This document shows positions 21,501-27,665 of a stretch of 64,000 nt of DNA, piece after piece; positions within the stretch are counted from its first letter, which is position 1; every line of letters begins with the position of its first letter. Origin of the DNA: Escherichia coli (GTDB lineage Bacteria > Pseudomonadota > Gammaproteobacteria > Enterobacterales > Enterobacteriaceae); assembly GCF_003018255.1 (NCBI RefSeq), contig NZ_CP027440.1, one strand, 5' to 3'. A model generated the notes under the pieces. The model made no database searches, was not told the DNA's origin, and saw only the letters and a program-made list of their open reading frames with translations. A program made the position numbers and the translations under genes.

Positions 21501-22259
21501 ATGAGCCAAATTTTACTGCAACCTGCTAACGCGATGATTACGCTGGAAAACGTCAATAAATGGTATGGGCAATTCCATGTTTTGAAAAATATAAATTTAA
21601 CCGTGCAACCGGGAGAACGGATCGTTCTGTGTGGCCCTTCTGGTTCCGGTAAATCGACAACCATTCGTTGTATTAATCATCTGGAAGAACATCAACAGGG
21701 ACGGATCGTGGTGGATGGCATCGAACTTAATGAAGATATCCGCAATATTGAGCGCGTCAGGCAGGAAGTGGGAATGGTCTTTCAGCATTTCAATCTCTTC
21801 CCTCATCTGACCGTTCTACAGAACTGTACCCTGGCACCGATTTGGGTACGCAAGATGCCTAAGAAAGAGGCTGAAGATCTGGCGTTGCATTACCTTGAGC
21901 GGGTGAGAATTGCCGAACATGCCCAGAAGTTTCCCGGACAGATTTCTGGTGGTCAGCAGCAACGCGTTGCCATTGCGCGTTCGCTGTGTATGAAGCCGAA
22001 AATTATGTTATTTGATGAGCCAACGTCGGCGCTCGATCCTGAGATGGTGAAAGAGGTGCTGGATACGATGATTGGGCTGGCGCAGTCGGGTATGACAATG
22101 CTGTGTGTAACACATGAGATGGGGTTTGCACGAACCGTCGCTGACAGGGTGATTTTTATGGATCGTGGGGAGATAGTGGAACAAGCTGCACCGGATGAGT
22201 TTTTTGCGCATCCTAAATCAGAGCGTACGAGGGCATTTTTATCGCAGGTGATCCATTAA
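21501..22259 (+). CDS. yhdZ: Amino-acid ABC transporter ATP-binding protein
   Basis: 252-aa ORF; Walker [13 protein letters not shown] signature SGGQQQRV. Confidence 0.95.
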
Positions 22260-22278
22260 TTGAATGTTAGTTCGAAAA

Positions 22279-22307
22279 GCAAAAAGGCCATCCTTTCGGA
22301 TGGCCTT
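22279..22307. terminator. Bidirectional hairpin terminator ending rrnD (minus) and yhdZ (plus)
   Basis: GGCCATCC-TTTC-GGATGGCC flanked by an A-run upstream and T-rich sequence downstream; positions checked against an ORF frame. Confidence 0.8.
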
Positions 22308-22319
22308 TCGCTTGATTTG

Positions 22320-22439
22320 ATGTCTGGCAGTTCCCTACTCTCGCATGGGGAGACCCCACACTACCATCGGCGCTACGGCGTTTCACTTCTGAGTTCGGCA
22401 TGGGGTCAGGTGGGACCACCGCGCTACTGCCGCCAGACA
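22320..22439 (-). rRNA. rrfF: 5S rRNA, distal copy of rrnD
   Basis: 120-nt match to E. coli 5S on reverse complement; coordinates checked against an overlapping ORF frame. Confidence 0.97.
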
Positions 22440-22476
22440 AATTCTTTTCTAATCTGCCGAACTTTAACCTAAAAAG

Positions 22477-22552
22477 TGGTGCTGATACCCAGAGTCGAAC
22501 TGGGGACCTCACCCTTACCAAGGGTGCGCTCTACCAACTGAGCCATATCAGC
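22477..22552 (-). tRNA. thrV: tRNA-Thr
   Basis: 76-nt reverse-complement match to GCTGATATGGCTCAGTTGGTAGAGCGCACCCTTGGTAAGGGTGAGGTCCCCAGTTCGACTCTGGGTATCAGCACCA. Confidence 0.97.
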
Positions 22553-22564
22553 ACGCTAAATTTG

Positions 22565-22684
22565 ATGCCTGGCAGTTCCCTACTCTCGCATGGGGAGACC
22601 CCACACTACCATCGGCGCTACGGCGTTTCACTTCTGAGTTCGGCATGGGGTCAGGTGGGACCACCGCGCTAAGGCCGCCAGGCA
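22565..22684 (-). rRNA. rrfD: 5S rRNA, proximal copy of rrnD
   Basis: 120-nt match to E. coli 5S on reverse complement. Confidence 0.97.
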
Positions 22685-22781
22685 AATTCTGTTTTATCAA
22701 CACGTCTCGTTATGACATGTCGATTTAATCTGTATCAGGCTGAAAATCTTCTCTCATCCGCCAAAACATCTTCGGCGTTGT

Positions 22782-25686
<2,905 letters not shown>

Positions 25687-25860
25687 TCACAACCCGAAGA
25701 TGTTTCACTTCAGAGTTGCGAAAATTTGAGAGACTCACGAACAACTTTCGTTGTTCAGTGTTTCAATTTTCAGCTTGATCCAGATTTTTAAAGAGCAAAA
25801 CTTCGCAGTGAACCTTTGCAGGTACACTCTGAAGTATTTTTTATTTAATCACTACAGAGA

Positions 25861-25936
25861 TGGTGGAGCTATGCGGGATCGAACCGCAGACCTCCTGCGT
25901 GCAAAGCAGGCGCTCTCCCAGCTGAGCTATAGCCCC
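25861..25936 (-). tRNA. alaU: tRNA-Ala (UGC), spacer tRNA
   Basis: 76-nt reverse-complement match to tRNA-Ala-UGC; coordinates checked against an overlapping ORF frame. Confidence 0.97.
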
Positions 25937-25978
25937 ATAACATGTAGTTAAAACCTCTTCAAATTTGCCGTGCAAATT

Positions 25979-26055
<77 letters not shown>

Positions 26056-26123
26056 GTAGAGGTTTTACTGCTCATTTTCATCAGACAATCTGTGTGAGCA
26101 CTGCAAAGTACGCTTCTTTAAGG

Positions 26124-27665
<1,542 letters not shown>

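Follow-up and report, generated by a model that had tools for sequence, protein, structure and literature searches.

The minus strand of the window (the whole stretch of E. coli DNA analysed here, 64,000 nt) carries a complete rRNA operon at 22320-27665, as delineated by Rfam and ARAGORN matches on the window. Its genes, the sequences bordering its last gene and its convergent neighbour are listed below.

26124-27665, minus strand: 16S rRNA gene, part of the rrnD-type operon
Between the 16S and 23S genes, minus strand: tRNA-Ile and tRNA-Ala (ARAGORN)
22782-25686, minus strand: 23S rRNA gene (Rfam RF02541, 2876 bits)
22565-22684, minus strand: rrfD, the proximal 5S gene, allele C3/C12/U13/G117 (Rfam RF00001, 93.2 bits)
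22477-22552, minus strand: thrV, tRNA-Thr (GGU), between the two 5S genes (ARAGORN; Rfam tRNA, 70.7 bits)
22440-22445, minus strand: AGAAUU, the 6 nt directly upstream of rrfF, a homology edge (comparison with other 5S copies)
22320-22439, minus strand: rrfF, the distal 5S gene, allele U3/A12/G13/A117 (Rfam RF00001, 90.2 bits, full length)
22315-22319, minus strand: CAAAU, the 5 nt directly downstream of rrfF, a homology edge (comparison with the proximal copy)
22282-22309, minus strand: intrinsic terminator hairpin past rrfF, a 12-bp stem followed by a T run (terminator scan), corresponding to T2 of K-12 rrnD
21501-22259, plus strand: yhdZ, amino acid ABC transporter ATP-binding protein, the convergent neighbour (252 aa open reading frame; annotated yhdZ in matching E. 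coli genomes)

The convergent yhdZ next door identifies the operon as rrnD, and the order 23S-5S-tRNA-Thr(GGU)-5S-convergent yhdZ is that of the E. coli-type rrnD distal end, an arrangement present in 5,375 of 5,426 complete E. coli genomes. An earlier note, made from the letters of this DNA, had held that rrnD ends in two 5S genes with tRNA-Thr between them; the tRNA-Thr(GGU) is indeed found at 22477-22552(-), and the gene names that the note used agree with the annotation of K-12 MG1655, in which the genes run rrlD-rrfD-thrV-rrfF, with rrfF adjoining yhdZ and rrfD adjoining the 23S gene. A 5S search of the whole window found no third 5S gene beyond these two. Both are members of RF00001 (93.2 bits for rrfD and 90.2 bits for rrfF, against a gathering score of 38), and in both the alignment covers model positions 1-120 of 120, so neither is truncated. 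Both genes most likely yield working 5S rRNA, and from the full conservation of rrfF outside the compensated pair described below, together with processing flanks common to the 5S copies, we infer that its RNA would be incorporated into ribosomes. The distal end of rrnD was reportedly described in 1980 by Duester & Holmes in Nucleic Acids Res 8:3793. The second 5S gene of rrnD is textbook knowledge, as the legend of figure 1 in PMC11883441 illustrates. The operon assignments in PMC4696680 place tRNA-Glu in the 16S-23S spacer of rrnD and tRNA-Ile/tRNA-Ala in rrnA, rrnE and rrnH, which does not fit the present locus, since rrnD of the window has tRNA-Ile and tRNA-Ala.

Two further observations concern the surroundings of the locus and one other E. 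coli genome. Among the 5,426 complete E. coli genomes, the best match to window positions 1-22300 shows 99.6% identity across 22.3 kb; no more than 77 records match at 99% or more and most lie at 95-99%, from which it follows that the source strain is not closely represented in these genomes. In E. coli IH5 (NZ_CP168269.1 4803257-4804625), the 23S-5S end abuts a truncated phage ‘host specificity protein J’ gene and is followed by neither tRNA-Thr nor a second 5S gene; this single-5S locus was not used in the tandem comparison. The IH5 genome holds 6 matching places against a median of 9, and the locus suggests a rearrangement or misassembly at an rrn operon.

Direct comparison of rrfD and rrfF, both 120 nt long, gives exactly four differences in the RNA sense:

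RNA position 3: C in rrfD (window 22682), U in rrfF (22437; ‘a’ on the plus strand); helix I, 5' strand
RNA position 12: C in rrfD (window 22673), A in rrfF (22428); loop A
RNA position 13: U in rrfD (window 22672), G in rrfF (22427); loop A
RNA position 117: G in rrfD (window 22568), A in rrfF (22323; ‘t’ on the plus strand); helix I, 3' strand

This bears out the earlier note, which had counted four differences between the tandem genes and had quoted the plus-strand strings ATGTCTGGCAG...CTACTGCCGCCAGACA and ATGCCTGGCAG...CTAAGGCCGCCAGGCA, all of them present in the sequence as written. Its central proposal, that the C-to-T change near one end is matched by G-to-A at the other and that the terminal helix is thereby kept, also stands: positions 3 and 117 pair with each other both in the Rfam consensus and in the thermodynamic fold, as C-G in rrfD and as U-A in rrfF. 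In RF00001, position 3 falls on model position 1 and position 117 on model position 119, which form the first consensus pair, and the Rfam alignment flags this pair as non-canonical in neither gene. Folding of both sequences with RNAfold, as the note had proposed, returns a 10-bp terminal helix in each, with energies of −50.7 kcal/mol for rrfD and −48.6 kcal/mol for rrfF, the latter being 2.1 kcal/mol less stable. The chance that four random differences include two partners that stay Watson-Crick is ~1%, but the comparative data on 3:117 combinations given below make a chance origin of the paired change irrelevant. The two further differences, which the note had placed in the adjacent segment, lie at positions 12-13 in loop A, right after the 5' strand of helix I. 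In a set of 76 distinct enterobacterial 5S sequences, 13 trinucleotides are seen at positions 12-14, so the unpaired differences sit at a hypervariable site, apparently an unconstrained one that varies among operons and strains.

The rrfF gene of the window is identical to rrfF of K-12 MG1655 at 120 of 120 positions, and its rrfD differs from K-12 rrfD only at position 13. The eight 5S alleles of K-12, with which the note had asked for a comparison, vary only at positions 3, 12, 92 and 117; U3-A117 occurs in rrfF alone, C and A at position 12 are found in four operons each, and U13 is absent from all eight. In 12 E. coli strains picked at regular intervals along the similarity ranking, the distal copy was U3/A12/G13/A117 in 11, and the proximal copy was always C3...G117 with C12, combined with U13 in eight strains and G13 in four. 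These allele counts make the window the majority E. coli state, and the rrfF allele, being that of the K-12 reference as well, is long established and already known. A further change in rrfF, U87>A, was seen in O157:H7 TB21-1 and in no other sampled strain.

Allele frequencies were counted in the 5,426 complete genomes with short 5' junction queries that include the unique tRNA-Thr spacer, for which only exact matches reach the top identity band, and with full-length 166-nt queries bearing a deliberate mismatch at an invariant position, to tell 0 from 1 mismatch by BLAST identity. The distal 5' junctions were distributed as follows:

U3/A12/G13: 4,913 of 5,426 genomes
U3/C12/U13: 64 of 5,426 genomes
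U3/C12/G13: 7 of 5,426 genomes
C3/C12/G13: about 14 of 5,426 genomes
C3/A12/G13: about 1 of 5,426 genomes

The exact full-length rrfF allele of the window (U3...A117) is present in 4,399 of the 5,426. Alleles other than those queried account for ~400 genomes in the 5' junction count and for ~1,000 in the full-length count, and E. coli lineages are clonal, so that none of these counts stands for a number of independent events. Positions 12 and 13 have been converted with U3 kept in 71 genomes, and C3 is present in about 15. A one-sided change at the other end, giving a U3.G117 wobble, occurs in 31-34 genomes. All 14 C3/C12 genomes have kept A117, which leaves a C.A mismatch in helix I. The sole fully converted allele queried, C3/C12/G13/G117, had 0 matches in the 5,426 genomes.

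The carriers of these one-sided alleles form recognisable sets. The C3/C12/G13 allele with A117 was found in the Z1323CEC series, TB4019, TB4328, E2, TUM3755 and OkiPb01695, mostly chicken isolates, and the C.A mismatch in rrfF has persisted in at least one circulating lineage. The U3.G117 allele, as against U3-A117 in MG1655, is carried by E. coli C, BL21(DE3) CP081489, Rosetta2, Origami2, TOP10, a J53 hybrid and mouse-gut O16:H48 isolates, several of these being laboratory strains in wide use or assemblies of such strains, and PG20180060, a sibling of the mouse-gut isolates, has C3.A117 in rrfF. Conversions of rrfF seem to arise on laboratory time scales.

The window and K-12 differ in what follows rrfF. 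Compared with positions 696-923 of the K-12 locus, window positions 22260-22319 are without a 168-nt unit that in K-12 comprises terminator T1 and the region of the small RNA rrF (rrF described in PMC8144298). In K-12 an 18-nt direct repeat, AACTGCCAGACATCAAAT, identical to the 5S 3' end, stands on either side of this unit; the window has a single copy, and the sequence after it is 104/105 identical to that past the second copy in K-12, which makes the only terminator of the window the equivalent of K-12 T2. Among 13 rrnD ends compared, the T1 and rrF unit is missing in six and present in seven. The second repeat, 168 nt downstream, matches the 5S gene of its own operon, reading CTGCCAGACAT in K-12 rrnD and CTGCCAGGCAT in rrnA and rrnB; it therefore tracks the local state of position 117, although the 150 nt in between are 97% identical across these operons. 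In Pseudocitrobacter faecalis, Escherichia whittamii and Klebsiella indica, the spacer between the proximal 5S gene and tRNA-Thr is ~150 nt longer and holds an rrF-like element ending in the 5S 3'-end repeat AAACTGCCAGGCATCAAAT, which places the element after the proximal and not the distal 5S gene in these species.

The same arrangement of alleles extends well beyond E. coli. A scan for 5S genes with U3 and A117, taking one genome per species and yielding at least 120 stretches, followed by location of the 5S genes in the fetched enterobacterial loci with blastn, returned among the matches listed a proximal C-G copy, tRNA-Thr and a distal U-A copy in Salmonella enterica subsp. diarizonae and arizonae. 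Also among the matches listed, the proximal C-G and distal U-A pairs recur in Klebsiella indica, Leclercia, several Citrobacter and Enterobacter species, Kluyvera, Kosakonia, Silvania, Pseudenterobacter, Superficieibacter, Escherichia whittamii, a Pantoea and a Dickeya. The two copies of a genome mostly agree at positions 12-13, and the bases there vary from genus to genus (UG, UU, AA, GA, AG, CG), which implies that homogenisation affects the interior of the gene and not pair 3:117. Providencia and Xenorhabdus show the opposite polarity, with U3-A117 in most copies and C3-G117 in the copy after tRNA-Thr. The distal copy there differs at two to three helix I pairs, all of them compensatory, with further changes at 2:118 and 6:114 in Providencia and at 4:116 in Xenorhabdus. 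An intrinsic tie of U-A to the distal position was considered and rejected, because in these two genera U-A is standard and the distal copy is C-G. One contig from these searches, CACSKA010000008.1, is labelled Chryseobacterium sp. 18061 and carries an enterobacterial 5S-tRNA-Thr-5S with layout and spacer identical to those of Citrobacter sp. 18056 from the same project; it looks like cross-contamination or a mislabelled assembly.

The genome scan is biased to carriers of the allele, and for this reason an unbiased sample was added from metagenomes, by a scan that took the tRNA-Thr 3' end as its anchor and was degenerate at the helix I positions. Pair 3:117 was U-A in 35, C-G in 28, U.G in four and C.A in one of the 68 distal copies recovered. 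The 29 distinct distal sequences comprised 12 with C-G, 13 with U-A, three with U.G and one with C.A (Fisher p = 1.2e-4, kinship ignored), so that in this set 3:117 behaves as a covarying base pair, with changes in both partners and few unpaired combinations. Among 23 distinct tandems in which both copies could be read, helix I was identical in ten, showed differences that include a compensatory double change in ten and was distinguished by a wobble only in three; a rule that tandem copies must differ is thus not supported. Helix I, 17% of the gene, held 26 of the 52 proximal/distal differences, and positions 11-14 held another 15.

The position of the paired difference relative to the borders of homology bears directly on its survival. 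Outside the gene itself, rrfF has only 6 nt on its upstream side (AGAAUU) and 5 nt on its downstream side (CAAAU) in common with the other 5S genes, and past these edges its flanks are ~30% identical to those of the other copies, with the exception of K-12-type strains, in which 150 nt downstream of rrfF are 97% identical to rrnA/rrnB. In a small sample of seven U3.G117 strains, this rrnB-like flank (97% identical to rrnA/rrnB) was present in six, and the flank of four of the six wobble strains contained rrnB-type marker bases. The combination of G117 with rrnB-type flank markers is as expected from a tract that enters at the 3' side and changes A117 to G. The seventh wobble strain, S103EC (NZ_CP076693.1 3739007-3739612), has a triplicate 5S-tRNA-Thr-5S-tRNA-Thr-5S array whose middle 5S gene is a hybrid, with U3 like rrfF and with G117 and a downstream flank like rrfD, as expected of a product of unequal crossing-over between the tandem copies. 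Conversion among E. coli rrn operons is frequent, efficient RecA recombination needs ~50 bp of homology, and conversion falls sharply with less (PMC8022953). At rrfF, a homology edge lies near the differences, the interior is homogenised and the ends are not, and flank markers have been co-converted, as an escape from conversion through limited flank homology would have it.

We therefore favour, with a probability of roughly 80%, the reading that the two 5S genes of the window are the ordinary rrfD and rrfF with which an Escherichia coli-type rrnD ends, and that rrfF bears an old compensatory substitution which conversion has not erased for want of flank homology. The substitution, C3-G117 to U3-A117, would be specific to this paralogue and would predate the split of Escherichia and Salmonella. 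Partners 3 and 117 lie at the two extremities of a 120-nt block of homology that has hardly any homologous flank, so that a conversion tract would homogenise the interior of rrfF and seldom get to position 3 or 117; the pair would survive because its partners stand at both ends of the block and a tract seldom reaches either. Conversion of both ends in one event, which would restore the pair as C-G, was never seen in the survey. Conversion of one end would yield U.G or C.A, of which especially C.A would weaken helix I, and such one-sided products are rare and probably selected against. The wider pattern across genera is what concerted evolution with limited flank homology predicts, and limited homology together with selection for pairing would be the cause of the persistence of the rrfF allele.

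Two sets of genomes are contrary to full protection by the homology edges. C3 occurs in the rrfF of about 15 genomes although homology on the upstream side extends for only 6 nt, and in K-12-type strains A117 is kept in nearly all despite the 150 nt of homologous downstream flank, so limited homology alone is insufficient in these strains. Because of these exceptions, selection against the wobble U.G or a low rate of conversion must be assumed in addition.

Of the alternatives, the one that survives best, although we consider it unlikely, is that selection keeps helix I of the tandem copies different in order to avoid cross-pairing in the common 5S-tRNA-5S precursor. The compensatory divergence that recurs in distal helix I, at 3:117 in Enterobacteriaceae, at 3:117 and 4:116 in Xenorhabdus and at 2:118, 3:117 and 6:114 in Providencia, would on this account be adaptive and not passive. 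When the helices of the 365-nt precursor were forced, the cross-paired fold beat the native one by 8.8 kcal/mol for identical copies and by no more than 1.0 kcal/mol for the actual C-G and U-A pairs, in either polarity; these energies take no account of folding during transcription, of ribosomal protein binding or of rapid processing by RNases. Avoidance of cross-pairing would also suit the reversed polarity and the additional differing helix I pairs of Providencia and Xenorhabdus, through which the difference recurs, as well as the finding that half of all proximal/distal differences in the metagenome sample fall in helix I. Differences at the gene ends are, however, equally predicted by limited homology, and the ten of 23 distinct tandems with identical helix I indicate that a difference is not required.

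Selection of U3-A117 for its own sake, with rrfF as a functionally specialised 5S gene (specialised ribosomes, altered binding or processing), appears improbable. The retention of distal U3-A117 across many genera since before the Escherichia/Salmonella split, even where the downstream flank would permit conversion of position 117, could be taken in this sense. The change is, however, an isosteric Watson-Crick swap close to where the terminal helix ends, and the gene is otherwise identical to other copies. Moreover, U-A has no fixed link to the distal place, given that U3-A117 is standard and the distal copy C-G in Providencia and Xenorhabdus, and 12 of the 29 distinct distal metagenome copies are C-G.

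Still less credence can be given to the idea that rrfF is a redundant copy drifting to a pseudogene, which would accord with its status as an extra, eighth copy and with the 2.1 kcal/mol by which its fold is less stable than that of rrfD. Against this, rrfF matches functional alleles at all 118 positions outside the compensated pair, scores 90.2 bits in RF00001, and has kept the AGAAUU and CAAAU flanks common to all copies, and the helix I changes of the distal copy are compensatory in every lineage examined. Assembly and sequencing errors (collapse, mis-polishing) can in principle befall tandem 120-nt repeats, but no other support was found for such an artefact, which can safely be dismissed since the distal allele is identical to K-12 MG1655 rrfF and recurs next to its own unique spacer in 4,399 of 5,426 independent complete genomes, the proximal allele is present in 8 of the 12 sampled strains, and the same 3:117 pair is found in other genera.

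As a discovery the paired difference matters little, its allele being already in the K-12 reference genome. The survey of it nevertheless supplies a small, clean example of concerted evolution halting where a homology block ends, and of a base pair that withstands homogenisation because its partners are the two ends of a gene and a single conversion tract seldom spans both. Searches of the literature on rrfF, 5S heterogeneity and gene conversion turned up no paper dealing with pair 3:117 of rrfF, and no description of the conservation of the distal pair across genera, of the one-sided conversions or of the reversed polarity in Providencia and Xenorhabdus was found in the literature searched. 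In practical terms, U3-A117 is a reliable marker of rrfF, holding for at least 92% of the complete E. coli genomes; it can separate transcripts of rrfF from those of the other seven 5S copies, can check assemblies of the rrnD end, and can reveal conversion or unequal crossing-over there.

Compared with K-12 MG1655, the locus has the same order, 23S-5S-tRNA-Thr(GGU)-5S next to yhdZ (rrfF, b3272; rrfD, b3274), and an identical distal 5S gene, including U3-A117 and A12/G13. It differs in having U13 where K-12 rrfD has G13, which gives four proximal/distal differences in the window and three in K-12, and in being without the 168-nt T1 and rrF unit after rrfF. Early RNA sequencing of E. coli MRE600 and K-12 is reported to have revealed 5S heterogeneity at positions 12 and 13, and the two unpaired differences of the window are at the same positions as this classical heterogeneity. 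The concerted evolution described for E. coli rrn operons (PMC8022953) has its likeness here in the interior of rrfF, which tracks the other copies, and in the one-sided conversions, which bring in rrnB flank markers; that study scored the 16S, 23S and 23S-5S spacer, not the 5S genes, and the escape of the rrfF ends is what we infer from the present data. Finally, compensatory changes in 5S helix I, an instance of the general covariation in rRNA helices (for 5S coevolution, PMC3433437), resemble those at rrfF in that a Watson-Crick pair is replaced via a G.U intermediate, and U.G intermediates are observed in the 31-34 E. coli genomes and in other lineages. Covariation of this general type is between orthologues of different species, whereas the two states at pair 3:117 stand side by side in paralogues of one operon, within one genome.
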